Source: Polyangiaceae bacterium (GTDB lineage Bacteria; Myxococcota_A; Polyangia; Polyangiales; Polyangiaceae). From it: a stretch of 64,000 bases of DNA. The stretch spans positions 32,001 to 96,000 of the forward strand of contig JANRKO010000019.1 of NCBI GenBank assembly GCA_033763455.1. Reading direction: 5' to 3'. Made by a program: the position numbers and the translations under genes. The notes under the pieces were generated by a model. That model had not been told where the DNA came from, searched no databases, and was given only the letters and a program-made list of their open reading frames with translations. This document shows, piece after piece, positions 6,545 to 42,503 of the stretch (positions within the stretch are counted from its first letter, which is position 1; every line of letters starts with the position of its first letter).

Positions 6545-6740
6545 CTTAGCATGCTAAGGATCTGCGACAGCGCGAGAACTCCGCCGGGCCCTTACGCGAC
6601 CAGGGGACACTTTACTTAGCATGCTAAGGATCTGCGACAGCGCGAGAACCCGCCGGGCCCTTACGCGACCAGGGGACACTTTACTTAGCATGCTAAGGAT
6701 CTGCGACAGCGCGAGAACCCCCCCGGGCCCTTACGCGACC
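6545..6740. repeat. Tandem repeat, about 2.8 copies of a 69-70 bp unit, each containing palindrome CTTAGCATGCTAAG
   Basis: Units start at 6545, 6615 and 6684 and are nearly identical; last copy overlaps the smc stop codon. Confidence 0.95.
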
Positions 6741-26531: not shown

Positions 26532-26703
26532 GTTGCCCCCTCTAGCTCCGCTCAGGCGCGGAGCTCGTCTCCCCCTGGCCAGTCGCTCCGCTCTGGCGGG
26601 GGAAACCCCAGCAAACCGACCAAAAGCGCCCGTGGACGATTTTTACATCTTTGCGTTGTCACTCCGGCACCGAGCGACTATACGGGCAGCCCTCAAGCAA
26701 CAC

Positions 26704-26780
26704 GTCCCCGTCGTCTAGCCGGCCCAGGACACGGCCCTTTCAAGGCTGTAACACGGGTTCAAATCCCGTCGGGGACGCCA
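26704..26780 (+). tRNA. tRNA-Glu (anticodon TTC)
   Basis: Acceptor stem GTCCCCG/CGGGGAC, anticodon arm CGGCC-CTTTCAA-GGCTG, T-loop GGTTCAAATCC, encoded 3' CCA. Confidence 0.97.
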
Positions 26781-26850
26781 GTTTCTTCGAGTCGCAGAAC
26801 CTCTGCACGCTGATTGACCCGGTAATCAGCTTCGTGGATGCTGAAGGGTA

Positions 26851-27342
26851 ATGAGCGACCCCAATCGACGTGCATTTCTGGGCGGCGCGGCCTTATTAGC
26901 CATTCCGGCGCTGGTTGAGAACTGCGGGGAGGGGACGGCTGTTGGCAAGAGCGCGGATGAGCGCGTCGCTGAGCTCATCGCGTTGAGCCGCGACCAGCAC
27001 GGCAAGCCGCACGTGGCGCGGGTGGCATTCCTCACGCCTGAGCGCACCAGCGGGACGCTTCCTGTTTCGGCCGCGGAGGCCGCTGATCTTCGGGCGGTGC
27101 TCGCTTCGGGTGATTTTAAGCTCTTCCAAGAACGGGGCCTACGCTTCGACAACAAGAAGTTCGTGTACATCCGTGAGAGTGAGGAGGGCACCGTGGTGCA
27201 CGCGGTGCGGCGCGGGGAGTTCGTAACGATTCGCAAGGCTCGCAGTGAGCTTGTGGTGGCAACCAGTGTGGACGGGATGGCGCACCCGCGCGCTGTCGAA
27301 GCCGTTTACCAGTACGTGCAACGCTCCGCGGCAATCGCCTGA
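26851..27342 (+). CDS. Profilin-like protein with twin-arginine (Tat) signal, possible lipoprotein
   Basis: NRRAFL plus hydrophobic stretch plus Cys; VSAAEAADL...FQERGLRFDNKKFVYIR...VHAVRRGEFVTIRKARSELVVA...AVEAVYQYV follows the profilin pattern (E-helix, G-L-x-x-x-x-x-K-Y/F, strands, C-terminal helix); next to actin. Confidence 0.8.
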   Translation: MSDPNRRAFLGGAALLAIPALVENCGEGTAVGKSADERVAELIALSRDQHGKPHVARVAFLTPERTSGTLPVSAAEAADLRAVLASGDFKLFQERGLRFDNKKFVYIRESEEGTVVHAVRRGEFVTIRKARSELVVATSVDGMAHPRAVEAVYQYVQRSAAIA

Positions 27343-27356
27343 AGTTAGGAATAAGA

Positions 27357-28037
27357 ATGCACAAGCTTCAGCTCACACTGGCCGCACTGCTTTTTTGCGT
27401 ATTCGCCGCTGGCACAGCCAGCGCTGGAAGCTGCGAGCAGGAAGTGGTGGCAGAGTGCGTTGCCAATTCCTGCCCTACCTTTTGCAGGACGCTCGCCGAA
27501 GGCCACGTGGAGGCATGTAAGGTAGGGTGCACGGCACAAGATCGCTGTAAGCTTGCTCTATTTGGCGGCCAAGACCGCCCGGCGCAGGTCGAGCTGGATG
27601 CGCAGAAGCGCGAGCAGCTCATGAGTTGCCTCGCAGAGAACCGCAAGCAACCTGTCGTACCCAAGGAGCTCGGCAAACCGATCCGCACTGAGGCGGATTA
27701 CGTCGCCCCCTCTGAAGCGAAGACGAAAGCCGTCAAGCGCAGCAGCCTTAAGAACACCAAGGCAAGCAAGGCGGCGTGGAAAGCCCGCAAAGCTCGCTCA
27801 TTTGCTGAGCGCAAAGTTGGTTCAAAGCGCAAGGATCCGCTCACCTACGTGCCCCCGGCTGGGCCTGTGAAGTCTCCCCCGAGGCCTCCGCTTCCGAGGT
27901 CAGCACCTCCCGGGCCAATGCCGCCCAAGCCGATGCCACCGAAGCCGATGCCTCCCAAGCCCCGCCCACAGCCAGCGCCGCCGGCGCAAAGCCCGAGCGG
28001 CCAGCAGGCACCGAGTCCGGCGCCCGCGAGCCCCTGA
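27357..28037 (+). CDS. Secreted protein with 8-Cys domain, basic linker and proline-rich tail
   Basis: Sec signal ending ASA, AGGA ribosome-binding site, 14 nt after the profilin-like gene, (PMPPK)x3. Confidence 0.85.
   Translation: MHKLQLTLAALLFCVFAAGTASAGSCEQEVVAECVANSCPTFCRTLAEGHVEACKVGCTAQDRCKLALFGGQDRPAQVELDAQKREQLMSCLAENRKQPVVPKELGKPIRTEADYVAPSEAKTKAVKRSSLKNTKASKAAWKARKARSFAERKVGSKRKDPLTYVPPAGPVKSPPRPPLPRSAPPGPMPPKPMPPKPMPPKPRPQPAPPAQSPSGQQAPSPAPASP
27915..27959 (+). repeat. 15-bp coding tandem repeat x3 (PMPPK)
   Basis: ccaatgccgcccaag/ccgatgccaccgaag/ccgatgcctcccaag. Confidence 0.9.
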
Positions 28038-28076
28038 TTACCCTACGCCTCCCTACGAAGCTGCGGGTAAGTTCGC

Positions 28077-29237
28077 TCAGAAGCACTTGCGGTGCACGAT
28101 CCCCGGGCCTGCCTCGTCGTACTCAGCCTTGGTGATCCACATCTGCTGGAAGGTGCTCAGGCTCGCAAGGATGGAGCCACCGATCCATACCGAATATTTG
28201 CGCTCGGGGGGCGCGATGACTTTGACCTTCATCGTTGGGGGAGCCAGGTTGGTCAATTCCTTTTGCATACGCTCGGCAATCCCAGGGAACATCGTGCTGC
28301 CGCCAGCCAGCACGAGGTTGCTGTATAGATCCGCGCGGATATCGACGTCGCACTTCATGATCGAGTTGTACGTGGTCTCGTGGATCCCCACGGCCTCCAT
28401 GCCCAAAAAGCTGGGTTGGAAGAGCGCTTCGGGGCAACGGAAGCGCTCGTTCCCGATCGTAATAACCTGCCCGTCCGGGAGCTCGTAGCTCTTTTCCAGA
28501 CTGCTTGAACTCGCTGCTGTCTGCATCTCCGCGTCAAAGTCTAGGGCTACGTAGGCGAGCTTCTCCTTGATATCTCGAACGATCTCACGCTCTGCAGTTG
28601 TCGTGAAGGAATAGCCTCGCTCAGTCAGAATCTTCATTAGGTAATCAGTGAGGTCGCGGCCTGCGAGGTCGAGCCGCAGGATCGCGTGGGGTAGGGCGTA
28701 ACCCTCGTAGATGGGCACCGTGTGGGTTATCCCGTCGCCACAGTCGAAAACCAATCCGGTGGTGCGCCCCGAAGCGTAGAGGGCAAGTACGGCCCCCATC
28801 GCCACGTACATGGCGGGCGTATTGAACGTTTCGAACATAATTTGCGTCATCTTCTCACGGTTCGCCTTGGGATTGAGCGGGGGTTCCGTGAGCAACACGG
28901 GGTGTTCTTCTGGCGCCACGCGCAGCTCGTTGTAAAACGCGTGGTGCCAGATCTTCTCCATGTCGTCCCAGTTGGTGACGATGCCGTGTTCGATCGGATA
29001 CTTGAGCGTCAAGATCCCGCGCTTGGCCTGCGCCTCGTCGCCCACGTAAGCGTCTTTCTGGCCCATCCCCACCATCACCCCCTGGTGGCGTGGGCGGCCT
29101 ACGATGCTCGGGAATACCGCCCGCGGCGCGTCGTCGCCAGCGAAGCCGGCCTTAATCATCCCTGAACCGTTGTCGACGACTAGGGCTTGGACTTCGCCCT
29201 CGGTTTGTCCGAGGACTGGGCTGGGAACGAGGGGCAT
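28077..29237 (-). CDS. Eukaryote-type actin (not MreB/ParM/FtsA)
   Basis: [79 protein letters not shown]-terminal IVHRKCF; no introns. Confidence 0.99.
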
Positions 29238-29313
29238 GCCTCACGCTAACAGGAGAGCCTCGACGCGCACAATCGAGAGCACGTGCTGCTAACCGCAATT
29301 CACGGCAAAGTAG

Positions 29314-30720
29314 CTAACCGCTCGCTTCGCATGACCGCTGGATGGCCGAGTAGTGAGCATGTGCGGCGCGCAACATATGCTCATGCTCCGGGCTGAATGT
29401 ATCGATAATATCGAGGGCCCCCACCGGCCCAGCGCGGAACGCCAGCCAATCAGCCAGCATCCCACGCGCGCGCGCCTCGCCCGATACTGACAGCTGGAGT
29501 TCTTCCCTCCACACATCCGCCACTGATGCGATCCCCAAACGATCGAGCTCATCAGCATCGAGCGCATACCAGCGAGCCCGCTTCAGGGCCTCGCTCACAT
29601 CTCCATGAGCCACGGTCACCTCGATCGCGCGCTCAGGATCCGCGAGCAGCCATACCAACTTATCGCGTCGGAGCGGAGCGTCCTTTGGCAGCGGAAAGGC
29701 CAGCTTGGCTCGCTCACCATCCGGTGGCCCAGGCACAACGAACCCAGCGTAGACCCAGCGCTCCGTTGGCGTACGGCGCCCGTAAAACATCCGAACCGCC
29801 TCGCCCGCAGTGTAGTTCATGCCGGCAACTGCACGCAGAGAGTTGCCCTCTAGGAATGTGCTCTCGGCGCCCAGCGTTTCGTCGTGGTCCAGCAGATCCC
29901 AAAGCGGCACCAGGGCGAGCTCATCGGGTACGGCGGTTTGGCGGGACGAAAGGATCGCCCCTGCCCAAAGCCAACGCTGCAGCGTGAACGCCTCGAGCGG
30001 TAGCGGGCGTTTGGCGGGCTCCGTCAGCCGTAAGCGGTGGTGCGCGATGCAATAAAGCTGCAGCACTCCGGCGAGGAAGCTTCTTCCCATGTTTGCAGCC
30101 ACGAGGTGTGAGCCAGGCGAACGCGGCCAGCTGAGCGCCGTTCCGGCCACTTCTCCGGGCAGCGCTGCAACATAAGGTGCCCACGTGTTGGTAGCCTCGT
30201 TTACGTAGCGGGCCCGGAGCAACCAAAGCATCAAATTGCCTGGCCCGAAAAGCGGTGCTTCTTGGAGCCATGGGCCCAATATCGGATCAGCGAAAACGTC
30301 GCCGTTGCGCAACATCGCACTCAACGGCACCTCAACCAACGTGGCGCCCCTGGCGATTGGCGCTGTCGCCTTAACGCTTGCACCCTTGGGTGTTGCGAGC
30401 AAACGCAGCCCGGGCGCGAACCGAACGCCGTGCAAGGCCGCCCACGCGGCCAGTGCATCTAACGCCTGTTGAGATACCGGGAGCGATGGTGGATCCATGG
30501 GTTGGCACTTTTGCACCAACGCCGAAGCTTCGTGCAAATCAGGGAGTTCGAAGCTCTCCGCGTCCCAGGCCACGGCACGCCGAAGCCCGGCGATGCGCGC
30601 GAGCAGATGGGCAAGATCATCGATCGCCGTTTGCGCCTGCGCCTCGGAAGAGGCTTCGTTGGGGGAGTCGGGTTCCAGGTGATCATCTGAGCTAAGGGCG
30701 GGGAGCGGAACAAGTGGCAA
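29314..30720 (-). CDS. SET-domain protein of the SETD3/Rubisco-LSMT type, putative actin-histidine N-methyltransferase
   Basis: WAPYVAALP, LPLEAFTLQRWLWAGAILSSRQ, ALVPLWDLLDH, AGEAVRMFYG, GFV and a C-terminal LSMT-like helical domain; TTG start uncertain. Confidence 0.82.
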   Translation of the reverse strand: MPLVPLPALSSDDHLEPDSPNEASSEAQAQTAIDDLAHLLARIAGLRRAVAWDAESFELPDLHEASALVQKCQPMDPPSLPVSQQALDALAAWAALHGVRFAPGLRLLATPKGASVKATAPIARGATLVEVPLSAMLRNGDVFADPILGPWLQEAPLFGPGNLMLWLLRARYVNEATNTWAPYVAALPGEVAGTALSWPRSPGSHLVAANMGRSFLAGVLQLYCIAHHRLRLTEPAKRPLPLEAFTLQRWLWAGAILSSRQTAVPDELALVPLWDLLDHDETLGAESTFLEGNSLRAVAGMNYTAGEAVRMFYGRRTPTERWVYAGFVVPGPPDGERAKLAFPLPKDAPLRRDKLVWLLADPERAIEVTVAHGDVSEALKRARWYALDADELDRLGIASVADVWREELQLSVSGEARARGMLADWLAFRAGPVGALDIIDTFSPEHEHMLRAAHAHYSAIQRSCEASG

Positions 30721-30889
30721 ACGAGGGAGCTGTTAAGTAGCAGGAGTGCAAATGTCCTGCGCAGGCATATTTTGAGGGCAAACAACCGTATTTTGACCTG
30801 GTACAGGCTGGTGATGGCACCCTACCATTTGAGTTGGATTTTCCCGCTATTGCGCAGAGTTGAAATCCCAGCCCGGAAATGGTGAACCT

Positions 30890-32620
30890 GTGAAGTTATC
30901 GCCCGTTTTACCCCTAGGGGTGGTCTTGGTCAGCCTCAGTGTTGGTTGCTCTGGGCTGTTTGAGTCTAACAGCGGCCGAAAGTCGTCCTCGAACGGCAAC
31001 GAGCCAGCCGAGGCCGGCACAACGCCTGCATCTCCCACAGACACGCCTCCAGGTCCGGGCCCAAGCGAAATGCCCACCGTGCCCACCGCGCCGTCGCCTG
31101 GCGCTTGCACGCTTCCGGGTACACCCCTTGCGGTGCAAACGCGCCGGCTTACCCCTCGGCAGTACCAAACGACACTGGAAGCCGGGCTTGGGTTGAGCTT
31201 GCAGCCGGCTGAATTGCCTCAGTTTCAAGACGACAATCCCACCATCGGGCTTGCCAACGATCCTCAGAAGCTGCGCATCACCACTGTCTCGGTAGACAGC
31301 CTTTATGCCTCGCTGCTTGCTGTGTCCAAGCGGTCACTGGCTAACGTTTCTGATGTGCAGAGTTGTATCTCAGCTACGGGCACGGCGTGCTTCGAACAAC
31401 TTATCGATAGCTTAGGTCAGAAGTTGTGGCGAAGGCCTGTGGCAGCGGAGGAAAAGGCGGATTTGTTAGCGGGGGTGGCGAGCGTAGCTGCGGCTTCCGG
31501 TACGCGCGAAGATCAGGCGGATTTTCTCTTGCAAGCGCTGCAGTTTTCCCCCAATACGCTGTACCGGCTGGAGCTGGGGGATGCGACGGGCAACCTCACT
31601 GATCAAGAGCTCGCTAGCCTGCTTTCGTACACATTTTGGGACGCACCCCCAGATGCGGCGCTGTTCGCGGCCGCTCAGGCCGGTACGCTTCACACCCCAG
31701 GGGTGCTGAAGTCTGAAGCTCAGCGTTTGGCTCAGGATCCCCGTTTCCCGAAGGCGGTTGCGGGCTTTCTTTGGGATTTTTTGAAGCTCGAGAATATCTA
31801 CACGAAAAAGAAAGACGATACGCTTGGCCTCACGCCAGCGGTACGTTCCACGCTGGCGGCCTCCGCATCGGGTACGCTCGACCAAGCGCTCACTAGCGGG
31901 CAAGCTTCGCTTCTCGACGTGTTCTCCGGGGTGAGTTTCCCCGTGAACGATGAATTGGCACCGTTTTTCGGAGTGCCGGCGGTTGGCACTAGCCAGCTAA
32001 CGCCTCAAAGCCTCAGCCCAGAGCAACGCCTCGGCATCCTCTCGCACCCGGGCTTTCTGACGGTTCACGCTGGGGAAGGCTCCACCAGCATCGTCAAACG
32101 TGGCGTATTCGTTTTGGAGCAGCTACTCGGCGTGAAGATCCCCGCTCCGCCGCCCAATGTTCAAGGCATTGACCCCGCCACCATTCCCAATCTCGATACC
32201 GCCACTACCAGTGCGCGTGAGCTCTTGAAGGTGACGCACAGCGCGCAGCCCGCGTGCAACGGTTGCCACTCCATCATCGATCCTGCCGGATTTGGCCTGG
32301 AGAATTTCGATACCGTGGGGCATTTCCGAACGGTTGAAAAGCAGACCGTGCCGATCGACGCCTCAGGTAGCATCACCGTTGGTTCTGAAACGTTAACCTA
32401 TACCAATAGTATCGAATATATCCGAGCGCTGAGCAGCTCTCAGGCGCTGCGCAATGCTGTGGTTGAGCATTACTTCGCCTACGCGCTCGGGCAACTTGGT
32501 GACGGGTGTGAAGCCCATCGATTTAGCGAGGCAATAGCAAAAGCAAACGACTCGCTTTCTGCACTTCCAACCGAGCTGGTTGCCACTCAAAGCTTTGTGC
32601 GCCGCGCGCCCACCCCTTGA
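30890..32620 (+). CDS. DUF1592/DUF1588-family lipoprotein with CxxCH motif
   Basis: Lipobox SVGC, RRLTPRQY, SPNTLYRLE, LSYTFWDAPPD, TSIVKRG, CNGCH, GFGLENFD. Confidence 0.9.
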   Translation: MKLSPVLPLGVVLVSLSVGCSGLFESNSGRKSSSNGNEPAEAGTTPASPTDTPPGPGPSEMPTVPTAPSPGACTLPGTPLAVQTRRLTPRQYQTTLEAGLGLSLQPAELPQFQDDNPTIGLANDPQKLRITTVSVDSLYASLLAVSKRSLANVSDVQSCISATGTACFEQLIDSLGQKLWRRPVAAEEKADLLAGVASVAAASGTREDQADFLLQALQFSPNTLYRLELGDATGNLTDQELASLLSYTFWDAPPDAALFAAAQAGTLHTPGVLKSEAQRLAQDPRFPKAVAGFLWDFLKLENIYTKKKDDTLGLTPAVRSTLAASASGTLDQALTSGQASLLDVFSGVSFPVNDELAPFFGVPAVGTSQLTPQSLSPEQRLGILSHPGFLTVHAGEGSTSIVKRGVFVLEQLLGVKIPAPPPNVQGIDPATIPNLDTATTSARELLKVTHSAQPACNGCHSIIDPAGFGLENFDTVGHFRTVEKQTVPIDASGSITVGSETLTYTNSIEYIRALSSSQALRNAVVEHYFAYALGQLGDGCEAHRFSEAIAKANDSLSALPTELVATQSFVRRAPTP

Positions 32621-32636
32621 AACTACGAGGCACGTC

Positions 32637-34067
32637 ATGAAATCCCCTCAACTGACTCGTCGCTCACTTCTGGCCGGCCTTGGTGCAGGCACGGCGCTCG
32701 GCTCGCTTTTCCTCGATTCCCCCGTGGCGCGTGGCCAGGCAAGCGCGGCGCCCGTGCGCCTCTTGTTGATCCCACTGCAGCATGGCTGGGGCAGAGATCG
32801 AAATTTTCAGAACTTCGCTGGCACTGAATCCACTTTTACGATCCCGGCTCCGCTCACGGGCTTGGAGGCAATCAAGCATCAATGCGTGTTTGTGGACGGC
32901 CTGCGCGGCACGCTCTGGGGCAACGCTCACGACGTTTCGTATTCAGATATCTTTACGGCTTCGGTGCCGTGGGATGAAGGCAGCTCAGCACAGCTCGGTG
33001 CACAGTTCCCCGAGCCCCTCGGGCCCTCGATTGATTGGCACATTGCCAATACGTTAAAGAAGAATGTGTTCCGTGGCTCGGCCGGGTATCAATCCTGGGG
33101 TAAGCCCTATCACCCGCTGTGTTTCGACTCAGCCGCGCAACAGCAGGCATTCTACACCAACGCCCGCCAAGCATTTGACGCCGTGGTGGCCCCTCTTGCG
33201 CCGCCAGCAAACCCAACGGATTTGGCCGTGCGTAATGCCGTGCGCAACAATGTTTTTTCGTACGTTGCCAAAGACATGGATCGACTGATCACGCGTCTGA
33301 GCGGCACAGAGAAGCTCAAGCTGGAGGGGCACCTGGCTGCCGTGAATGATTTGAACCGGCGCATAACCGGAGGTGGCGGGCTGGGCGGAGGCACTTTGGA
33401 GATCCCGCCGCGACCAGGCGATATGCAAGCCTTCGAAAAGGAGGTGGACGACTTCTTTGATATGGTTCGCGTGCTCTTCACCGCGGATACGCATCGCGTG
33501 GCGGTGTTGGGCTTAGGGGAGCAGGTCAAAGATTGGACATGGACGGACGCGGCCAATAAGGCACAGGTTGGCAATATTTGGAATCTCGAGGGTTTCCATC
33601 ACGACGTTGCTCACCATGGCGATAAAGCCGACCAAAGGCGCTCTTTCGAAGGTTGGGCGGCTTGGTATGTGCGAAAGATTGTCTCGTTTGTGCAGCGCCT
33701 AGAGCAAACGCCAGATGTAGATGGCCGCATGCTCATCGATAACACGATTATTGTACTCACCGGCGAAGTTGAGACAGGAGAGCACGACACGCGCTGCAAG
33801 CTTCACACGGTGATCGGTGGGGGCGGCGGTATCCGGCGTGGGCGTTGGCTGAAGCTTCCGGATGTGGAGCCACGAAGTCGCGGCGGTGTGTTCATCGGCG
33901 GCAAGGATCGCGCGGGCACTACGATTGAGTCCGGCATCAACTACGGGTTGCCGTTTGGCCGACACCACCATGCCGATCTGTGGGTCACCATCGCCCGCCT
34001 GTGCGGTGCCCCTGTGGATACTTTTGGTACGGATATTTACAACTTCAGCCCGATATCACTCACTTAG
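32637..34067 (+). CDS. DUF1552-family protein with Tat signal
   Basis: TRRSLL signal, PSID, EKLKLEGHL, HHDVAH, LIDNT; usual partner of DUF1592. Confidence 0.85.
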   Translation: MKSPQLTRRSLLAGLGAGTALGSLFLDSPVARGQASAAPVRLLLIPLQHGWGRDRNFQNFAGTESTFTIPAPLTGLEAIKHQCVFVDGLRGTLWGNAHDVSYSDIFTASVPWDEGSSAQLGAQFPEPLGPSIDWHIANTLKKNVFRGSAGYQSWGKPYHPLCFDSAAQQQAFYTNARQAFDAVVAPLAPPANPTDLAVRNAVRNNVFSYVAKDMDRLITRLSGTEKLKLEGHLAAVNDLNRRITGGGGLGGGTLEIPPRPGDMQAFEKEVDDFFDMVRVLFTADTHRVAVLGLGEQVKDWTWTDAANKAQVGNIWNLEGFHHDVAHHGDKADQRRSFEGWAAWYVRKIVSFVQRLEQTPDVDGRMLIDNTIIVLTGEVETGEHDTRCKLHTVIGGGGGIRRGRWLKLPDVEPRSRGGVFIGGKDRAGTTIESGINYGLPFGRHHHADLWVTIARLCGAPVDTFGTDIYNFSPISLT

Positions 34068-34155
34068 CGGACGGGCCCTCGGTTCAGCGCCGAAGCGTCG
34101 GGCCTTAGACGCAAGCCTCCATACGAGGATCAGCTGGATGTGGTAACGGTATTGG

Positions 34156-34863
34156 GTGCTGAAGCGAGGCGTGTTTGCCCACCCGTGGACATCTAACGTC
34201 GCACTCTGGGCGGGGGTGGCGTTATTGGGATGTTGGCGCGCCGAGAGGCGCTCTGTGCTGGAGGCAGGAGGTGAGGGTGGTGGTGGTGGCGCAGCCACGG
34301 TTGCTGAACCACCCTGTACGGTGCCCTGTATGCCGTTGTTCGACGGCGCAGATGCTTCCGGGTGGAGTTACCTCGGCGGTGGCGAAATGCGACTTCTAGA
34401 TGGCTACGCGCGGACTCACGGGGACGGCGTTTCGCTGGGACTTTGGTATTACTCCCTTAGAACATTCAAGAATTTTGAGCTCAATGTGGAGTTTCGCCAA
34501 TCGGTAGTGGGTGCAAATTCTGGCGTGTTTGTGAGGTTCCCGGATCCGCGAGGCAACGTGCTTCGTCCCATAAGCCAAGGGTACGAGGTCCAGATCGCCC
34601 GCGCACCGGGTACCAGCGAAAGCACGGGGGCTATTTACTCTTTTCAGGCCGCGGATCCGAAAGGTGAGCTCACCGAACCAGGGCTTTTCAATCAACTCCA
34701 GATCCGCGTGGTGGATCAGAATTATGAAGTTAGCTTAAATGGGCAGCTGATTAATTCGTTTGTCGGGCGCCGCAACCTGGAAGGCTACGTTGGTATTCAG
34801 GTCCACGATTCACCGACAGATATCGTGGACGTCCGTCGAGTTGAGATTACCGACCTTCCCTAG
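34156..34863 (+). CDS. DUF1080 (3-keto-disaccharide hydrolase family) lipoprotein
   Basis: LFDG..SGW, FKNFEL, ANSGVFVR, GYEVQI, TGAIY, GYVGIQVH. Confidence 0.9.
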   Translation: MLKRGVFAHPWTSNVALWAGVALLGCWRAERRSVLEAGGEGGGGGAATVAEPPCTVPCMPLFDGADASGWSYLGGGEMRLLDGYARTHGDGVSLGLWYYSLRTFKNFELNVEFRQSVVGANSGVFVRFPDPRGNVLRPISQGYEVQIARAPGTSESTGAIYSFQAADPKGELTEPGLFNQLQIRVVDQNYEVSLNGQLINSFVGRRNLEGYVGIQVHDSPTDIVDVRRVEITDLP

Positions 34864-34908: not shown

Positions 34909-36969
34909 TTAGAGTGATTCCATGTAGGCAACCAAATCTTGCACTTCGGTGGCCCCTAGACTTGAAGTGTGCCCGTGCAGATCCCCTCCGCCACACGAGG
35001 TATCGGTGAAACGCGCCGACAGCGTTGGCGCACAGCCGTCGTGCATGAAAGGCGCACGGCGCGAAATGCCAATGAGGGACGGGGTTTGAAGGGCGGGCTC
35101 CCCGTTACGAACCTGACGATTCAGGTTATCGGTGAGCTTGGCTCCTGAGTGGCAGCCCGAACAGCCCACTTCTGCGGACTCAAACAAGGCCTTGCCGCGC
35201 TGGACCGCAGGATCGCCCGAGATGCGCGGGCTAGGAGGAGCTTTGAGACCAAAGAGCCAGCCTTCCAAGGCCTTGAGGCGTTCGGGGCTTTGGAAGACCC
35301 CGCCCATACGACGGACGAAGACTTCATCCACGAGGGCACTCATCCCACCCAAGTCACCGTCCCAGTGAAATGGTTGAGTTTCCGCGAGCCCATTGTGCAG
35401 CGACTGAGTGCGGCGCGAGCCGATGCCTGAGAACTTCCAAACACGCCCATCTTCAGTTCCTTCGGGGTGACAGGAAGCACAGGCGATTCCAGCCCCAGAA
35501 TCGCGGTTGAAAATATCGTGACCAGTGTCCCTCACCGAGATCCCACCCAGGTCAACCACTCTCCAACCCGGAAACGTGCCCGTTGTGGTAAATCCGTTCA
35601 CAACCTCGGCCACCTTGTCGACGATGTAGAGGCGCGCGGGCTCTCGTGATTGCACGACGAGCTGCTCGGAGTTCGCAGGGCTGAATGCCACCGCAATAGG
35701 TTGTGCCTCGGTCGGCACGTTCACGGGGGTGCCGAAGCTACACCCAAGGTTGGCGTCCGTGTCGGTCGGAACCTGCGACCCACTGTAGAGCATCACGCTG
35801 CCAGCCGAGAATGGACCGAAGGAGGGCACAGGCGGGGCGGAGAAGGTCCCACCAGTGCCAGGCTGTCCAAAGGACGGTTGCGGCGTATTAACGTCGGCCA
35901 AGCCAGCCGATGCGGTCGCGATCCACGAGCCATTCGGGGAACTGGCGAGATCCACCGCGAGCACCGCACCGCTGAGCGATGTATTCGCTTGGAGTTGCGT
36001 AGCACCGACAGTGGAGAAGCCGGTGAGTTCGCTCTGCACAATGGATTCGCAGGGAAACGAATTGGCACCGGCTCCGTACGGGCTGGGCGCCTCTGGCTCT
36101 TTCTTGCCGATGTCGAGTACGGCATCGGTTGCTACCTGGTGAAGCATGAGAAGCTGACCGCTGGAGGAGGCGAGCGTGCGGTAGGCTGCGGTAGGCTCAA
36201 ATGTGGTGGCGAGAGGACCTTCGGGTGCTCCGGAGTGAAGCGTTCCTGGAACCGCACGGGGGCGCATGCGCCCAATCTCGGCGCCCAGCTTCGACAGGAC
36301 GATAAGCTCCGGCGAGCGGAATCGACTAACGACAATGTCCGTGCCTCTGACCACGACATCTCGCAAATCAGTTTCAATAAACTGCCGTGTTTTGGGCTCG
36401 CCACCGGCTGTGGGAAATGCGACCAGATCTCCGTCGGCACAAGCAACGTACACAAGATCGGTGGAGCTATCGACAGCGATACCGCGGGGCGAACCGCACA
36501 CGGCTCGGCGGAAAAGCACGCTGTGCGCCACTGGATCTAGGCTCACGATGGCACCTCCACCACGTAGGATGGCGTGCACTCTACCTTCAGGATCTTGCAC
36601 CAGGCGCCCCGGCTCATCTCCCGCATTGACCGAAACAACGCCTTCAACTTTGCCTGAGGCCATGCCAACGAAAAGGAACCTATCGCGATCTGGATCCGCA
36701 ACGACTGCGGTGGCGCCGCTATTGGTGATAAGAAGAGTGCCTCCGCTAATCGGGGGCGGAGGTTTGGCAGCAACAACTGGCGGGCGAGTGTCCGTAGGGA
36801 TGACCCGCGCGAAAGCGGCCTTGCCACCGGACCCATCAGGGCCGAACTGCTCCGGTACGGGCAGCGTCGCCCCTGTGCCCGTTGCATCTGCGGAGCAGCC
36901 CTCCACAAGGAGCAGTGCGACCAAGGGCAAGGTTGCGGTAAAGACGCGTAGATGCCTTAAATTCAACAT
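34909..36969 (-). CDS. Lipoprotein with beta-propeller region and di-haem cytochrome c (peroxidase-like) domain
   Basis: EGC lipobox, two haem motifs CASCH and CSGCH, PFHWDG, TPSL, APFMHDG. Confidence 0.85.
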   Translation of the reverse strand: MLNLRHLRVFTATLPLVALLLVEGCSADATGTGATLPVPEQFGPDGSGGKAAFARVIPTDTRPPVVAAKPPPPISGGTLLITNSGATAVVADPDRDRFLFVGMASGKVEGVVSVNAGDEPGRLVQDPEGRVHAILRGGGAIVSLDPVAHSVLFRRAVCGSPRGIAVDSSTDLVYVACADGDLVAFPTAGGEPKTRQFIETDLRDVVVRGTDIVVSRFRSPELIVLSKLGAEIGRMRPRAVPGTLHSGAPEGPLATTFEPTAAYRTLASSSGQLLMLHQVATDAVLDIGKKEPEAPSPYGAGANSFPCESIVQSELTGFSTVGATQLQANTSLSGAVLAVDLASSPNGSWIATASAGLADVNTPQPSFGQPGTGGTFSAPPVPSFGPFSAGSVMLYSGSQVPTDTDANLGCSFGTPVNVPTEAQPIAVAFSPANSEQLVVQSREPARLYIVDKVAEVVNGFTTTGTFPGWRVVDLGGISVRDTGHDIFNRDSGAGIACASCHPEGTEDGRVWKFSGIGSRRTQSLHNGLAETQPFHWDGDLGGMSALVDEVFVRRMGGVFQSPERLKALEGWLFGLKAPPSPRISGDPAVQRGKALFESAEVGCSGCHSGAKLTDNLNRQVRNGEPALQTPSLIGISRRAPFMHDGCAPTLSARFTDTSCGGGDLHGHTSSLGATEVQDLVAYMESL

Positions 36970-37129
36970 GCTGATCCCTTTCATGAACGAGCTGGTCCGC
37001 TCACCTGGGTGATGTCGAAAGCATATTAGTTTGATCACCCTATAAGTGTCAGCTTATTCAGACGCGTCCCGGCTTGAACCGCATTGGCAAGGCCTGGAGC
37101 TATGTGCGCCAGCGAGGGTTAACCCTTGT

Positions 37130-37561
37130 TCAGGACTCCGAGGGAGCGGCCTCGCAGGCGCCGGGCACAGGAGCTAGATCTTTACCGAGTAAGAACGCCG
37201 CGGGGCGGAAGGCGGTGCCCACTTTGACGAAGAGCTTCGCGGTTCCCTGGTACACGCAACCCGTGATGTCAGGCTCCCATTCTTCGGACCCGCTGTAGCG
37301 AAAATCGATAACAAACGGGACGAACTTTGCACCCTTGCTGTCTTGGGCAAGCTTCGCTTCCAAGATGCGTATGCGGCGCTCGCGTGGTGGGGGCCGACCG
37401 CGAGAAAAACGGCTCCCTTTCTGTTCGCGCGCGGCGAGCGGCTTGACGAGCCCCTGATCCACCCGGAGCTTCGCCCACTCCGAAAGCGAGGGTTCAGCCG
37501 CTGCGAGCGATGGAGCCAGAAGTAGAACGACTGCGCAGAACGAGGAACGATGAAAGCCCAT
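37130..37561 (-). CDS. Hypothetical secreted protein
   Basis: Signal peptide ending AAA; two Cys in the mature part. Confidence 0.65.
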   Translation of the reverse strand: MGFHRSSFCAVVLLLAPSLAAAEPSLSEWAKLRVDQGLVKPLAAREQKGSRFSRGRPPPRERRIRILEAKLAQDSKGAKFVPFVIDFRYSGSEEWEPDITGCVYQGTAKLFVKVGTAFRPAAFLLGKDLAPVPGACEAAPSES

Positions 37562-38222
37562 GGTAGATCCTTTGCAACGCGTGGATGAATTGAGTGAACG
37601 AGAAAGCGAATCGCCTCGATACCGCTTCGGCGACTAAGGCGCTGAGAATGACGGGCACCCATAGAGCGATTACGTAAGCCACGTCCGGATTAACGCCTGC
37701 CTCATCGAAACCGATGAGCATTGCACGCGACGTGACGGCCACGCTCATCTGGGCGATGACGTGGCGCATGGCTCTGCTGTGTGAGATCATGTCACGTCGC
37801 CGTGCTGCGCGAATGCCGTAAGCCATGCAGCCCGCGACAATGGCGCCGGATAGTAAAAAGCCCGCAGTTACGCCGGCTCCGCCCTTAGCGTCGAACGCAA
37901 GTACGGCACCCGAGGGCACCAACCCCAGCAGAACCAAGACACCCGCTAACCGCCCCTGATAGCGGTGCCAGCGGGGGCGGCGCTGAAGCCAGCGCATCGT
38001 CAACATCAAACACAGCGGGAACGAAACCAGAGCGGCGGCTACGTGCACCTTGAGCGCCGGGAGCCAAAGCGACTCGAACTTCACCACCGGTAGGCGCTCG
38101 ATGATGAAAGGCGCCAGCGTGTCCGGATCAAAATACTCCAGGCTTGCCGCTGTGATCGCGGCCGACCCCGCGAACATTACAGCTAAAAAGAGCCCTCGAA
38201 GAATTCCCGCAAAGACGCGCAT
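37494..38222 (-). CDS. DUF2306-like membrane protein
   Basis: HV, WHRYQGR, HSRAMR motifs between TM helices. Confidence 0.75.
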   Translation of the reverse strand: MRVFAGILRGLFLAVMFAGSAAITAASLEYFDPDTLAPFIIERLPVVKFESLWLPALKVHVAAALVSFPLCLMLTMRWLQRRPRWHRYQGRLAGVLVLLGLVPSGAVLAFDAKGGAGVTAGFLLSGAIVAGCMAYGIRAARRRDMISHSRAMRHVIAQMSVAVTSRAMLIGFDEAGVNPDVAYVIALWVPVILSALVAEAVSRRFAFSFTQFIHALQRIYHGLSSFLVLRSRSTSGSIARSG

Positions 38223-38336
38223 TTTGCCTTGGACTCTACGTGCCCCCAAAGATTTGCTTCCCCGAGGCGCCCAAAATCACATTTTTGTTGGCGCATTCGA
38301 TTGAATGAAATGACGCGCACCTACGTATGCACCGGC

Positions 38337-39146
38337 TCAGCGCCAGCGGCTTGGAGGTACTCCGAGGTGGGCGCGGAACTGAGCGCTGAACTCGAAGGGT
38401 GAGGGGTAGCCGAGCTCAGCAGCCACAGACTGCACGCTGCGGCCGGCTCGAAGCAGGGCGCAGGCATGGTCGATGCGGCGCCGGATGCGGTAGCGGTGCG
38501 GGGGTAAGCCGGTGCGGTTACGGAATTCTTTGCGGAATCGTTCATAGTCGAGGCCCCGTGAGTTGCACCAGGCTGCGAGATCCAGGCGACGTGAGCTTTG
38601 CTCGGCCAGCAAGCGGCAGGCTTCCTCGATGGGATCGGTTGCGCGGGCTGGCGGTTCGGCGCTGGCCATGGCGGTGACACTGATGTCGATGATGCGGGCC
38701 ACCTGCTGGGGCAACTGGCGTTCGCTGGCGGCGGCGAGCTCTCCTACCAGATCTAACATGCGGCTCCTCACGTGCGTGCCCGGCGGGAGCGACCATGCCG
38801 GCGGATTGATGGGCAATACACCAAGTTCGGCGAGCGGCTGGTGCAACTGTGGCCCGAGCTCGACGAAGACCTCCAACCAGTTCGAGGAGGGGTCAATATA
38901 CGTGGAGTGCGCTGTGTTGGGAAGGCGCTGAAAGCACCACCCAGGGGCCAAATTCCAGGCATTCCCATGTTGGTCAAGGTAACGCCCACGGCCACGCAAT
39001 ACGAGGATGAGTGACCACGCCACCATGCGTTTCTCGCGTTCGTCCACCGCGACTCCGGATTTGTCCAGGACGCCGGCGCCGATGCGGTCGTAGGTGCCGT
39101 GTCCGAGGGCACGATAGACGTTACGCACGGGAATGTTCTTTTCCAT
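38337..39146 (-). CDS. AraC-family transcriptional regulator
   Basis: C-terminal FRNRTGLPP...VAAELGYPSPFEFSAQFRAHLGVPPSRWR; divergent from the GH2 gene; start uncertain. Confidence 0.92.
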   Translation of the reverse strand: MEKNIPVRNVYRALGHGTYDRIGAGVLDKSGVAVDEREKRMVAWSLILVLRGRGRYLDQHGNAWNLAPGWCFQRLPNTAHSTYIDPSSNWLEVFVELGPQLHQPLAELGVLPINPPAWSLPPGTHVRSRMLDLVGELAAASERQLPQQVARIIDISVTAMASAEPPARATDPIEEACRLLAEQSSRRLDLAAWCNSRGLDYERFRKEFRNRTGLPPHRYRIRRRIDHACALLRAGRSVQSVAAELGYPSPFEFSAQFRAHLGVPPSRWR

Positions 39147-39221
39147 TTTCCATATGTTCGCATCCAGATCCGCTATGGGCAACGGGGGAGGGCAGGCGTA
39201 GGAGTTGCCACAGAGGACCCT

Positions 39222-42200
39222 ATGGCCAAACCGAGCAGCTCCAAAACCGCCACTCTTACTGCCAAAGACAGCCTGATCCCCTGGCTTGCCCCTGAACTTA
39301 CGGGCATCAACCGCCTACGTGGCAGGGCCTTCGGCTATGGGTTCCCAAGCGTCGAAGACGCGCTTGCAGGCAGCAAGCCCGAAATGCGTTCGCTCGATGG
39401 CGTCTGGAGGTTCAAGCTCCTCGGCCGCCCCGAGGACACGCCGGCAGATTTCCCTTCGCCCGCGCTTAAAGACGCACACTGGCACAATATAGAGGTGCCC
39501 GGCTGTTTCACCATGCAGGGCTTCGGTAAACCTATTTACACGAACGTCAAGCTGCCATGGGTCTGCCGTTATCCTGAGGTGCCGGATGAGAACCCGACTG
39601 GGCTTTATCGCGTACGCTTCCAGGTGCCCAAAGCCTGGGCCGGTAAGCGCCTGATCCTCCGCTTCGGATCCATAGAGAGCGTTGGGAGTGTGTGGGTCAA
39701 CGGGGTAGCCGTTGGGATGACGAAGGACTCGCGCCTCCCGAGCGAGTTCGACATTACAGCGGTCGCGAAGCTGGGTGAAAATGTGTTGGCGGTCCAGGTC
39801 ATCCAGTGGTCCGATTGCACGTTCATCGAAGACCAAGATCAGTGGTGGCAGGCGGGTATTGCGCGCGAGGTCGAACTCCTCGCTTACCCCAAGGTTCACC
39901 TAGAGGATGTCTTTGCGAAGGCGGGCTTTGACTATGTGAAGGGCTCTGGCAGCCTTGAAATCAAGGTGCGCGTGCATCAGACGCCGGCCCCGGGTTGGAA
40001 GGTCCGCGCCCGTTTGTTCAACGCCAAGGGCAAGCTGACTCAAAAGGCGCCGTTTGAGGCAGAGGTCACCTGGTTCGAACCAGCTCAGCCGCACACGCGG
40101 GAGGAGCACGCGGCCGTCTTGAAGACGGTGTTGCCCAAGGTAGACGCTTGGTCGCATGAGTCGCCGACGCTCTACACGCTGGTCGTGTCGTTGGTCGACC
40201 CTGCGGGCAAGGAGGTCGATCATACTCGCCAACGCATCGGCTTCCGCAGCGTTGAGATCAAAGAGCGTTCGCTCTTACTGAACGGCAAACGGGTGTTCAT
40301 CCGGGGCGTCAATCGCCATGAGCACCACGATCGATACGGCAAGGTGGTCGATGCGGATACAGCGCTCCGGGATATTCAGGTGCTCAAGCAGTTCAATTTT
40401 AACGCCGTGCGCACTTCACACTACCCGCCGCACCCGAGCTGGTTCGATCTGTGTGACGAACACGGGATCCTGTGCATCGACGAAACCAACCTCGAGGCAC
40501 ACCACCACTACCACGATATCTGTAACGATCCGCGCTATGCCTCGGCTTTCTTGGACCGTGGCAGCCGCATGGTCCTGCGCGATCGCAACCATCCTTCGAT
40601 CATCATGTGGTCACTCGGGAACGAGAGTGGCTACGGGCCGAACCACGACGCCATGGCTGGCTGGATGCGTCACGCCGACGGTACCCGCATCATCCACTAC
40701 GAGGGAGCTATTGCTGTCGCCGGTTGGAACAACGGGCATGTGGGCTCCGATCTGGTGTGCCCCATGTACCCTGCGCCGAACGAGCTGATCCGGCACGCCA
40801 CCACCACCAAAGATTGGCGGCCCATCATTATGTGCGAATACGCGCACGCGATGGGCAATTCATGCGGTGGCCTGAGCGACTACTGGCACGCTTTTGAGAA
40901 AACACCGGGCATGCAGGGTGGCTTCATCTGGGAGCTGCTCGATCATGGGATCCGCAAGCAAATCGGTAAAGATATGCCGCTCGGTGCGGACACTAAGGCT
41001 AAACCCACGGGTCGCGCCCCGGACATCGGTTGGCCGGGAGATAATGTATATTGGGCTTACGGCGGAGATTTCGGCGAGGTCACCCACGACACGAACTTCG
41101 TGTGCGATGGTCTGCTCTGGCCTGATCGGACCCCGCACACTCCGATGTGGGAGGCGAAGGTGCTGTTTCAGCCTCTAGAAGTACGTTTGATGCCGGGCGC
41201 TCGGCAAACCCCGCGTGGGGTGCAGATCCGTTCAAAATATGACTTTATCAGTACAGCGCATCTGGCTGGGTACTGGGAGTTAACAAGCGATGGCAGCGTG
41301 CTCGAATCTGGCAAGCTACCCAGGCTCAACCTGAAGCCGGGTGAGACCGCCAAGATCCAGGTGCCGTGTTCCAGCCCGAAAGTTCGCACCGGGCAAGAAG
41401 CCCATCTTATGTTGCGTTGGTACGATACACGCGAAATGCCCTTAACGGGGCGTAATCACGAGGTCGCCTGGGCCCAGCTTGCGCTACCCACCGTGGCCAA
41501 GGCCAAAGCTAAGAAAGCTAAAGAAGCCTCGGCTGCTCTACGTGCTGGTGGCAAGCTCACCGTAGGCGAAAGCAAGTCCACTATCACCATTGCTGGTCCG
41601 GGTGTTGAGGTCGTGATCGAGCGCTCGAGCGGGCGGCTGAGCGCCTGGACGGTTGGAGGGGTCGAGATGCTGAAAGCAGGCCCACATCCGTGTGTTTGGC
41701 GTGCACCGACCGACAACGACGGCATTCGTCTGCGAGACATGCACCGCGATCCGATCGCGGAGCCCGAGAATCCCTGGGTAAACAAGCCGTTGCGCAGGTG
41801 GATGGTCGCTCACCTCGATGAGGCTCGGACAGCAGTCGAGAAGCTGTCAGTGCGGTCCGTTCGCGGCGGCGTTGAGGTGGTTTGGTGCACTCGTACTTGG
41901 GGCAAAGATAAGGTCAGAGCTGTCGTGGTTGAGCACCGTTTGCTGGTCGGAAGCGATGGTTCATTGGCCTTCAGCCACCGTTTCGACGTGCATCAAGATC
42001 TGCCCGATCTGCCACGCGTCGGCGTGCACTTGCTGTTGCGAGCTGAGCTCGATCAACTTGAGTGGCTGGGCCTTGGCCCACACGAGACTTACTGCGACCG
42101 CCGAACGTGCGGCTTAGTTGGTCGTTTCGCTTCGAGCGTGCTCGATCAGTACATCCCGCACATCATGCCGCAGGAGCACGGTCACCACTGCGACACGCGT

Positions 42201-42503
42201 TGGCTGAGCTTGCGTCGAGCCGATGGCAGCGGCTTGTTGATATCCGGGGCGCCCATGTTGGAATTCAACGCTAACCGATACGACCAGATGGATCTGACTC
42301 GTGCCCGCCACACGTTCGATGTTAAGCCTAGTGAGCACATTCATTTGCATCTCGACGCGGCCCATCGCGGCCTAGGCACTGCCAGTTGTGGTCCCGATGC
42401 TTTTGATCAGTATCGCGTAAAACCGGGGAAGCGTTACGAGCTTGCCTACCGCATGATCCCGCTCTTGGCAGGGGAGGACGCGGCGGCCAAACATCGGGCG
42501 TGA
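39222..42503 (+). CDS. Beta-galactosidase, glycoside hydrolase family 2 (LacZ-type)
   Basis: PIYTN, GVNRHEHH, NAVRTSHYP, WSLGNES, MCEYAHAMGNS, GGFIWE, YGGDFG; GAGGA ribosome-binding site. Confidence 0.95.
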   Translation: MAKPSSSKTATLTAKDSLIPWLAPELTGINRLRGRAFGYGFPSVEDALAGSKPEMRSLDGVWRFKLLGRPEDTPADFPSPALKDAHWHNIEVPGCFTMQGFGKPIYTNVKLPWVCRYPEVPDENPTGLYRVRFQVPKAWAGKRLILRFGSIESVGSVWVNGVAVGMTKDSRLPSEFDITAVAKLGENVLAVQVIQWSDCTFIEDQDQWWQAGIAREVELLAYPKVHLEDVFAKAGFDYVKGSGSLEIKVRVHQTPAPGWKVRARLFNAKGKLTQKAPFEAEVTWFEPAQPHTREEHAAVLKTVLPKVDAWSHESPTLYTLVVSLVDPAGKEVDHTRQRIGFRSVEIKERSLLLNGKRVFIRGVNRHEHHDRYGKVVDADTALRDIQVLKQFNFNAVRTSHYPPHPSWFDLCDEHGILCIDETNLEAHHHYHDICNDPRYASAFLDRGSRMVLRDRNHPSIIMWSLGNESGYGPNHDAMAGWMRHADGTRIIHYEGAIAVAGWNNGHVGSDLVCPMYPAPNELIRHATTTKDWRPIIMCEYAHAMGNSCGGLSDYWHAFEKTPGMQGGFIWELLDHGIRKQIGKDMPLGADTKAKPTGRAPDIGWPGDNVYWAYGGDFGEVTHDTNFVCDGLLWPDRTPHTPMWEAKVLFQPLEVRLMPGARQTPRGVQIRSKYDFISTAHLAGYWELTSDGSVLESGKLPRLNLKPGETAKIQVPCSSPKVRTGQEAHLMLRWYDTREMPLTGRNHEVAWAQLALPTVAKAKAKKAKEASAALRAGGKLTVGESKSTITIAGPGVEVVIERSSGRLSAWTVGGVEMLKAGPHPCVWRAPTDNDGIRLRDMHRDPIAEPENPWVNKPLRRWMVAHLDEARTAVEKLSVRSVRGGVEVVWCTRTWGKDKVRAVVVEHRLLVGSDGSLAFSHRFDVHQDLPDLPRVGVHLLLRAELDQLEWLGLGPHETYCDRRTCGLVGRFASSVLDQYIPHIMPQEHGHHCDTRWLSLRRADGSGLLISGAPMLEFNANRYDQMDLTRARHTFDVKPSEHIHLHLDAAHRGLGTASCGPDAFDQYRVKPGKRYELAYRMIPLLAGEDAAAKHRA

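Follow-up and report, generated by a model that had tools for sequence, protein, structure and literature searches.

A recurrent Myxococcota gene module in which a near-eukaryotic actin is linked to a profilin-fold protein with a candidate Tat signal and to a SETD3-like protein

Introduction

How does an actin of almost eukaryotic sequence come to be encoded among ordinary bacterial genes, side by side with proteins that resemble the partners of eukaryotic actin, and what might such an assemblage be used for? This question is raised by a stretch of DNA of 64,000 nucleotides (here called the window), which corresponds to bases 32001-96000 of a 243,083-bp contig (JANRKO010000019.1) of the Polyangiaceae genome assembly GCA_033763455.1, and in which four adjoining genes encode a profilin-fold protein, a Cys-rich basic secreted protein, an actin and a SET-type methyltransferase related to SETD3 (Table 1). 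The module is located approximately 59-63 kb into the contig, and the source genome comprises 6.56 Mb in 92 contigs with an estimated completeness of 93.7% and contamination of 2.8%. An original prediction, made from the sequence of the window, had described four intronless open reading frames following a tRNA-Glu gene and situated between ddl and a DUF1592 gene, and all of these were found as described. In the current work the module is identified as a real, so far undescribed bacterial actin system, and we consider it probable that it represents a horizontally acquired and long-domesticated Myxococcota module in which the SET enzyme modifies His73 of actin and an actin-binding profilin-like protein is exported by the twin-arginine translocation (Tat) pathway.

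Table 1. Position of the four module genes and of the preceding tRNA gene in the window
Feature	Position	Strand	Supporting match
tRNA-Glu(UUC)	26704-26780	+	ARAGORN
Profilin-fold protein, 163 aa	26851-27342	+	Pfam Profilin 30.4 bits (cut-off 25)
Cys-rich basic secreted protein, 226 aa	27357-28037	+	No Pfam family
Near-eukaryotic actin, 386 aa	28077-29237	-	Pfam Actin 494.5 bits
SETD3-like SET methyltransferase, 468 aa	29314-30720	-	SETD3 chains are the sole PDB matches (E<=1)

Results

Recurrence of the module in Myxococcota

A scan for actin, in which each prokaryotic species was represented by one genome, retrieved 103 relatives distributed over 76 loci. When the three partner proteins were compared with these 76 actin-bearing loci by tblastn, matches were obtained only in three Myxococcota loci. 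All three partners are present in a Kofleriaceae metagenome-assembled genome (MAG; locus L030, 223-kb contig), the actin of which is 85% identical to that of the window, and in a Myxococcales MAG (L062, actin 77% identical), while the profilin-like and Cys-rich genes are present in a second Myxococcales MAG (L033, actin 82% identical) on a 5.9-kb contig that breaks off 65 bp before the start of the profilin gene, where a SET gene might lie.

In a sample of 400 genomes from the phylum of the window, an actin (E<=1e-60) was detected in seven, and two of these seven (G224 and G167) encode a profilin-fold protein with a Tat-type N-terminus (Tat-profilin), which adjoins the actin gene both times; profilin-like matches were obtained in none of the 393 actin-negative genomes of the sample. 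Genome G224, which belongs to the same family as the window (98% complete, 8 contigs), carries the Tat-profilin, Cys-rich and actin genes in a row at 1.86 Mb, whereas G167 possesses the profilin-like and actin genes only, in convergent orientation. The G167 actin (L109:1498-2982) is furthermore extended at its N-terminus by a long run of acidic KGEADG repeats and has Arg in place of His73. A third actin-positive genome, G157, encodes a canonical signal-less profilin (MSWDSYIDNL..; L118, G157:C87:44073-44453) on a contig other than that of its actin-like gene.

Linkage of the profilin-like, Cys-rich and actin genes is thus found in four further Myxococcota genomes, with a fifth carrying the profilin-like and actin genes, and the SET gene is present in two of these five. 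Among the six loci with readable context, the window included, actin and Tat-profilin are always present (6/6), followed by the Cys-rich protein (5/6) and the SET or SET-GNAT protein (3/6). Three gene orders were observed: SET-actin facing Cys-profilin (window and L062), actin facing Cys-profilin with SET beyond (L030), and co-directional profilin-Cys-actin (L033 and G224). No other open reading frame is common to the module loci, so that a fifth conserved gene was not found among them. The search for the same synteny in Myxococcota genomes and MAGs, which had been proposed as a check, recovered the cluster or its core in five further genomes, and the suggested co-selection is supported by the profilin-like gene adjoining actin in 6/6 loci despite three different orders.

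The rival explanation of an assembly chimera, or of eukaryotic contamination placed in a bacterial contig, draws on the fact that many actins in prokaryotic assemblies are plain contamination, present in isolate genomes on contigs of 0.4-2 kb that mostly have low coverage; one supposed MAG contig bears tandem intron-bearing actins together with a reverse transcriptase of the long interspersed nuclear element type, and actin is absent from all 60 close relatives of the host that were searched (0/60). Against this stand the position of the cluster well inside a 243-kb contig, where bacterial genes flank it on either side, a host-like G+C content (GC) both overall and at third codon positions (GC3), the lack of introns in any of the four genes, Tat and Sec (general secretory) signals on two of the genes, the GNAT fusion in relatives, and the independent assemblies of five other Myxococcota with the module or its core, one of them at 1.86 Mb in a genome of 8 contigs. 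The GC of each locus moreover tracks that of its host, from 0.60 to 0.75. Because of this recurrence with shuffled gene order, the host-like composition and the bacterial export signals, a chimera is very unlikely and close to refuted, and the four-gene module, as originally described, is regarded as real.

The short contigs form a group of their own: dozens of isolate assemblies (L021-L029, L034, L035, L047-L059 and alike) contain 0.4-2 kb actin contigs, mostly of low coverage, whose actins are 84-93% identical to that of the window, and these are almost certainly eukaryotic contamination.

A profilin-fold protein with a candidate Tat signal

The profilin domain occupies approximately residues 33-163 of the 163-residue protein, and the Pfam Profilin cut-off is also passed by three of four orthologues. 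The AlphaFold2 (AF2) model has a mean predicted local distance difference test (pLDDT) score of 81.5, with blocks between residues 41 and 140 at 92-96, and of the 44 rows which Foldseek lists for it at E<=0.001, profilin chains make up 38, the first non-profilin (Ragulator/LAMTOR) appearing at rank 38; the best profilin matches had a template modelling score (TMt) of 0.77-0.79 at 2.6-2.9 Å. The assignment as a profilin is consequently upheld by a Pfam score above the cut-off together with a profilin fold in Foldseek.

The N-terminus of the window protein reads RRAFLGG (residues 6-12) followed by AALLAIPALV, resembling the Tat motif that was sought (S/T-R-R-x-F-L followed by a hydrophobic stretch). 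An R-R-x-F/L-L motif with a hydrophobic stretch is present in all ten full-length members of the first set (10 found), and the RR motif recurs in 16 of 18 further members, the remaining two being N-terminally short. A profile search of 1.84 billion representatives retrieved 60 profilin-like clusters at E<=1e-3, 25 of them at E<=1e-10. The profile reaches canonical profilins at E values of 5e-9 to 1e-3, and below a gap in the scores six of seven inspected matches were canonical signal-less profilins of the SWDSYIDNL type. Among signal models, TIGR01409 matches 7 of 11 members (best E 8e-4), and two orthologues reach 21.6 and 19.0 bits with Pfam TAT_signal, under its cut-off of 22.7; a TatC protein is encoded in the genome of the window (221 bits). 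One member gave a marginal NCBIfam match to MelC1 (E 0.026), which is attributed to the shared signal. The expectation of an exported profilin is therefore strongly supported as a prediction by the constancy of the motif, and the existence of a Tat-profilin family (25 clusters at E<=1e-10) poses the question of where the actin ends up.

In profilins, the aromatic residues W3 and Y6 of the N-terminal helix bind polyproline. Such aromatics are present in the canonical profilins fetched (MSGWDAYV, MYYDSYID and MSWDSYID), while the corresponding helix of the profilin-like family has invariant R38, V39, A40, I43 and S46 and neither Trp nor Tyr. With the profilin alignment as query, no relatives were obtained from either metagenome or viral-contig scans.

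A predicted complex of the profilin-like protein with actin

For complex prediction, actin and residues 31-163 of the profilin-like protein were both supplied as alignments in a single job. The pair attained a score of 0.88, compared to 0.00 for the best of three controls; in calibration, 116 of 157 solved complexes attained the score mark, as did 2 of 215 mismatched pairs. At least 95% of contacts are common to the runs, and the partner has a pLDDT of 89 or more. The predicted contacts involve residues 177-185, 295-300, 362, 365-366, 380 and 382-386 of the window actin, which in canonical numbering are 166-174, 284-289, 351, 354-355, 369 and 371-375, a face which we take to be the barbed-end profilin site of actin.

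A SETD3-like protein beside its presumed substrate

In eukaryotes, SETD3 is the N-methyltransferase of actin His73. When the SET protein of the window was compared with the PDB by phmmer, all ten matches at E<=1 were SETD3 (best E 1.8e-15), and the SET part of the family profile likewise matched SETD3 in 10/10 cases (E 2.8e-22). Foldseek with the SET model placed SETD3 at ranks 1-20 as listed (E 1.5e-14, 17-19% identity in these rows) and Rubisco LSMT and SETD6 after it; a Pfam search of the window protein at E<=0.1 yielded nothing beyond one chance DUF match. Since PDB, family profile and Foldseek all rank SETD3 first, the proposed SETD3-like nature of the protein holds, although the original prediction had overlooked that the enzyme is usually a SET-GNAT fusion.

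The family consists of nine proteins in a search of 5.8 billion clusters, the named hosts being all Myxococcota or 'Deltaproteobacteria' MAGs; scans of metagenomes and of viral contigs with the SET alignment returned no relatives. Six of the eight full-length members are fusions of approximately 710-750 residues with a C-terminal GNAT domain, which is absent from the window protein and from P0008. Fusions of this kind were seen at L062:5742-7955 (+) and L030:10522-12768 (+) and in P0003-P0007; in the L030 copy the reading frame is lost from approximately residue 590 onwards. In the PDB, the GNAT part of the family matches generic GNATs, RimI, Naa30 and a chain named 'N-terminal acetyltransferase' (E 7.5e-6 to 1e-2), with no NAA80-named chain among the 20 matches listed, and the search for a separate close GNAT copy in the genome of the window gave only a generic 23-bit match. 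The fusion is proposed to be the ancestral form, from which the window copy would have lost its GNAT domain. As the matches include N-terminal acetyltransferases, one bacterial protein may supply both hallmark eukaryotic actin maturation marks, and the domain composition suggests that the two are reproduced by a single SET-GNAT protein.

Residues were mapped by alignment to human SETD3, with their roles taken from PMC6400499. W274, D275, H279, Y313, R316 and F327 are identical in the window protein, I311 is replaced by Met, and the four residues of the His pocket (W274, D275, Y313 and R316) are invariant across the family. Human N256, the position of which is occupied by Phe in lysine methyltransferases, corresponds to Thr in seven and to Asn in two of the nine members, and never to Phe; Thr at position 256 is not among the variants of human SETD3 tested in PMC6400499.

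The actin encoded in each of the three SET-bearing loci retains Y69, I71, H73, D80, D81 and M82. Among the eight actin-bearing genomes in which a search for SET gave no match, His73 is replaced in four (Arg in L050, Tyr in L070, Arg in G224 and Arg in G167) and kept in the other four (L033, L044, L074 and G157). The presence of SET and the conservation of the His73 peptide would thus appear to vary together, a relationship which is suggestive only. The two loci with SET-GNAT fusions encode actins with acidic N-termini (MSDQQ.., MSDDE..), while the actin of the GNAT-less window begins MPLVPSPVL; that the actin N-terminus may follow the presence of GNAT is a lead drawn from few loci.

Features of the actin

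The window actin is approximately 88-91% identical to eukaryotic actins (90.6% for the closest eukaryotic-type actin in the loci that were fetched), and its Pfam Actin match covers profile positions 3-410 of 410. Its best solved match is the major actin of Dictyostelium (3chw, E 5e-235). Compared with the fetched eukaryotic-type actins it has 24 private positions within canonical residues 1-375, or 35 with the N-terminal extension included. Its numbering is the canonical one plus 11, so that His73 is residue 84. Residues D154, D157 and H161, which belong to the catalytic and nucleotide-site residues of actin, are present in an alignment to 3chw. The segment 66-88 is identical to the SETD3 substrate peptide given in PMC6400499.

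Neither the actin nor the SET protein possesses a signal peptide. The two share a similar N-terminal nonapeptide, MPLVPSPVL in actin (29211-29237, -) and MPLVPLPAL in the SET protein (30694-30720, -, TTG start), whose DNA is only about 63% identical, with five of ten differences at third codon positions. A general secretion or targeting signal was considered and rejected for this shared N-terminus, as PLVP.P.L occurs only four times in the six-frame translated genome and the orthologues are without it. Searches for cofilin and gelsolin were blank in the genome of the window, as they also were in all control genomes.

A quick tree placed the actins of the module, four in number, in one group with two solo actins from Myxococcota, one from a Rickettsiales MAG and one from an unclassified MAG (Shimodaira-Hasegawa-like approximate likelihood ratio test, SH-aLRT, 95), apart from the cyanobacterial actins. 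As this tree was obtained by a quick search, with SH-aLRT as its sole support and a eukaryotic sampling that was not a proper one, no donor of the actin is drawn from it.

The Cys-rich secreted protein

The second gene of the profilin pair encodes a protein with a Sec-type signal and an AxA site (..TASA|GSCE), cleavage being predicted before G-S/T-C-E. The signal precedes a domain of approximately 75 residues with eight invariant Cys, and the protein further contains a Lys/Arg-rich region and an invariant W141-K142 and F149 (..AWKARKARSFAERK..). Six members were found in the 5.8-billion-cluster search; the protein has no Pfam family, and its Atlas model (pLDDT 0.45) gave no usable look-alike. 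The window protein ends in PPKPMPP repeats, and on this basis it had been suggested to act as a polyproline ligand of the profilin. This suggestion is not supported, because the proline tail is not conserved, being pronounced in the window and in P0022, short in both P0023 and L030 and missing from L062 and from P0025, and because the N-terminal helix of the profilin-like family is without aromatics.

Genomic setting

The Cys-rich gene starts 14 bp 3' of the profilin-like gene and converges on the actin gene across a gap of 39 bp, and the SET gene precedes actin by 76 bp in the same orientation. The upstream flank is bacterial in content (ImuB/DnaE2, SMC, cytidylate kinase (cmk), S1, FHIPEP, FIST, PP2C and Ddl), as is the downstream flank (a DUF1592/DUF1588/DUF1595 protein, DUF1552, a GH2 enzyme, a Ser/Thr kinase and others). 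The GC of the window is flat at approximately 0.6, and the GC3 of the four module genes (0.68-0.77) is at or slightly above that of neighbouring genes (0.55-0.71). Promoter and terminator scans gave site numbers no higher than in shuffled sequences.

Three genomes of the same genus share FHIPEP-FIST-PP2C-Ddl-tRNA-Glu with 70-84% protein identity, and their DNA can be aligned to approximately position 26790 of the window. The tRNA-Glu gene is thus the last element of the common synteny, and the variable region with the module begins directly after it. In G001 and G003 other genes fill the 1.8-4.4 kb gap 3' of tRNA-Glu, after which synteny resumes at a 3-keto-disaccharide hydrolase, a 195-residue protein, a kinase and an aldehyde dehydrogenase; the contig of the third congener stops just 3' of tRNA-Glu. 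The variable slot of the window is made up of the module and the DUF1592/DUF1552 pair. Neither a tRNA-derived direct repeat nor an integrase was found within 26600-34300. A second insertion relative to G001 and G003 is present at 34909-42503, where the two flanking genes adjoin each other in both congeners, and contains a 709-residue protein without family, DUF2306, a 122-residue open reading frame and a GH2 beta-galactosidase.

The S1 protein of the window is 84% identical to that of L033, 70% to L062, 66% to L030, 56% to Nannocystis and 45% to that of a gammaproteobacterium, and by this pattern of kinship the host is a myxobacterium. Ranked by similarity to the window, the modules follow the order L030, L033, L062, while the hosts follow the order L033, L062, L030, and this discordance hints that the module may have moved between hosts within the phylum.

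Discussion

The proposed action of the module and the points that weigh against it

On balance the data are best accounted for by a module that was acquired horizontally and has resided for long in its Myxococcota hosts, long residence being indicated by the host-like GC3 and by a locus GC which follows each host. The core of this system would consist of the near-eukaryotic actin and the profilin-fold protein with its constant Tat signal, to which the disulfide-rich basic protein exported by Sec and the SETD3-like methyltransferase would be added as accessories. The SET enzyme and the actin, neither of which has a signal, would be made in the cytoplasm, where His73 of actin would be methylated by the SET enzyme and the barbed face of monomeric actin is predicted to be bound by the profilin-like protein. 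The latter, as its invariant signal implies, would be exported in folded form via Tat to the periplasm, and the Cys-rich basic protein would likewise be periplasmic.

A number of observations weigh against this interpretation. If the profilin is exported and the actin is cytoplasmic, the two would meet only by binding before export, and the N-terminus of the window profilin, taken singly, gives no TIGR01409 match at E<=0.1. The complex score expresses likeness rather than binding, because solved profilin-actin structures may be remembered by the predictor, and conservation of the interface is weakly enriched (17/27 compared to 40/99 positions, Fisher p 0.049). As to the enzyme, Pfam SET is matched by none of the nine family members, and the AF2 model is of moderate quality (pLDDT 70.2, template modelling score ~0.45 and root-mean-square deviation ~15 Å to SETD3). 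Human R215 is Leu in the window protein, R75 falls outside the aligned region, and N278, which participates in S-adenosylmethionine (AdoMet) binding, is an invariant Asp in the family; according to PMC6400499, the activity of human SETD3 is nearly abolished by N278A. With the residues of the His pocket kept and N278 and R215 changed, catalytic competence of the SET enzyme, as judged from the alignment, is plausible but not assured. The covariation of SET with His73 is restricted in its force by the few and probably related events from which it derives.

Two further points concern the actin. Eukaryotic actin requires the CCT chaperonin for folding. Gln137, the catalytic Gln for ATP hydrolysis, is replaced by Gly in the window actin (residue 148, 28794-28796, -) and by Pro in L033, and is kept in L030 and L062; normal dynamics coupled to ATP hydrolysis are therefore doubtful for the window actin, and Q137G suggests that its ATPase and filament dynamics may be altered.

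Alternative explanations

The separation of exported profilin from cytoplasmic actin would be overcome if the profilin-like protein were a Tat escort, by means of which a folded, SET-modified actin monomer hitch-hikes through the Tat translocase, the Cys-rich basic protein then receiving, nucleating or anchoring the actin in the periplasm, at the surface or in vesicles. Such a scheme is speculative and we consider it unlikely, but if true it would represent the first extracytoplasmic bacterial actin system and an export route for eukaryote-compatible actin.

Alternatively, the actin could form a cytoplasmic structural polymer in the manner of ActM/PfnM of Microcystis aeruginosa, with intracellular co-assembly of actin and profilin, filament properties tuned by the SET enzyme, and an RR motif that is not an export signal. 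ActM/PfnM, the one studied precedent, forms an intracellular shell according to PMC3254629, and the absence of signal peptides from actin and SET, as well as the failure of TIGR01409 to match the window N-terminus, would agree with an intracellular location. This explanation is nevertheless judged improbable, since 26 of 28 members of full or nearly full length have RR with a hydrophobic stretch, the canonical profilins found by the same profile are without RR, the adjoining gene encodes a Sec-signal protein with eight invariant Cys, and ActM is approximately 64-66% identical to eukaryotic actin compared to approximately 91% here.

It is also conceivable, and in our estimation distinctly improbable, that the products are directed against eukaryotes, the exported profilin-like and Cys-rich proteins acting on the actin of prey or grazers, with the module actin and SET protein serving as a partner, a holder or a delivered component. 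Two of the four products carry predicted export signals, the surfaces of the actin are unusually eukaryote-like (90.6% identity, 24 private substitutions in 1-375), and myxobacteria degrade bacterial and yeast cells, as stated in PMC3035250. A delivery system is not linked to the module, however, as FHIPEP belongs to the synteny of congeners without the module; the profilin-like gene never occurs without a bacterial actin in the genomes searched, although a pure anti-host factor would need none; and a similar degree of conservation (86-90%) is seen in solo cyanobacterial actins, which have no partner.

Significance

The domesticated module favoured here, with His73 modification and an exported profilin-like protein, would be of use for several questions. 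The replacement of His73 in four genomes without SET constitutes a natural experiment linking SETD3 to His73, and the module as a whole offers a minimal, compact bacterial setting for His73 methylation and for the recognition of actin by profilin. It likewise provides a test of how near-eukaryotic actin folds without the eukaryotic chaperonin, and of whether Tat can move actin. In the literature searched, the scope of which did not extend to subscription journals, nothing was found that joins SETD3 with Myxococcota, nor anything on a Tat-signal bacterial profilin or on the module, and three elements are accordingly new to that literature: a SETD3-like protein encoded beside its presumed substrate, the Tat-profilin family, and the SETD3-His73 natural experiment.

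Comparison with known systems

The SET protein has in eukaryotic SETD3 its sole solved relative, with which it shares the His-pocket residues W274/D275/Y313/R316 and the cofactor residues H279/F327, and the SETD3 substrate peptide 66-88 is identical in the actin encoded beside it. Unlike eukaryotic SETD3, the bacterial family has N278 changed to Asp, R215 lost and Thr or Asn at position 256, and is usually fused to GNAT; also unlike its eukaryotic counterpart, the window SET is encoded beside its presumed substrate.

For the escort scheme, the comparison is with Tat hitch-hiker export, where a Tat-signal protein carries along a bound partner devoid of a signal, as is the case for the small and large subunits of hydrogenase and for MelC1-tyrosinase. 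In both settings the gene of a small protein with a Tat signal adjoins that of a larger protein without one, with 1:1 binding being predicted for the module. The cargo of the module would be actin, for which no precedent is known.

The original prediction had named ActM with PfnM and BARP as bacterial precedents. The ActM and PfnM locus was recovered in the scan (L063, actin 5452-6555 and profilin 6845-7264); the frequency of such actins in bacteria had been underestimated, as eukaryote-like actins were also found on long contigs of cyanobacteria, Myxococcota, Thiosymbion, Sedimenticolaceae and a Rickettsiales MAG. Solo actins are encoded in cyanobacteria (L031, L032, L038, L045 and L068, one being a complete Microcoleus chromosome), Thiosymbion (L039) and Sedimenticolaceae (L085), on contigs of 24 kb to 6.3 Mb and between bacterial genes (gyrB, tol-pal, fusA and others). 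These actins are 67-82% identical to that of the window, and no profilin was found within approximately 2.6 kb of them. In the Rickettsiales MAG (L036:4401-7290), a canonical profilin, an actin, a cofilin/ADF and an ankyrin-repeat protein are encoded between glyS and thyX. This represents, like the module, a multi-gene eukaryote-like actin cluster among bacterial genes, with an actin 88% identical to that of the window, but it differs by its canonical profilin (84 bits, MSGWDAYV) and cofilin and by the lack of SET, Tat signal and Cys-rich protein; being located on an 8.8-kb contig with a GC of 0.31, it may be host contamination.

The bacterial cases named in PMC6906331 are the BARP of Haliangium and ActM. 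In Microcystis aeruginosa, actin and profilin are encoded on a genomic island and build a shell inside the cell (PMC3254629); they resemble the module in that the genes of a horizontally acquired eukaryote-type actin and of a profilin-fold protein are neighbours in a variable chromosomal region. PfnM is a canonical signal-less profilin (MYYDSYID.., Pfam 104 bits), whereas the profilin of the window scores 30 bits and has a Tat-type signal and no aromatics in its N-terminal helix; ActM is also the more distant from eukaryotic actin, and the fetched Microcystis locus encodes neither a SET enzyme nor a Cys-rich partner. The bacterial use of eukaryote-type actin had rested on ActM/PfnM, and the module described here extends it beyond that system.

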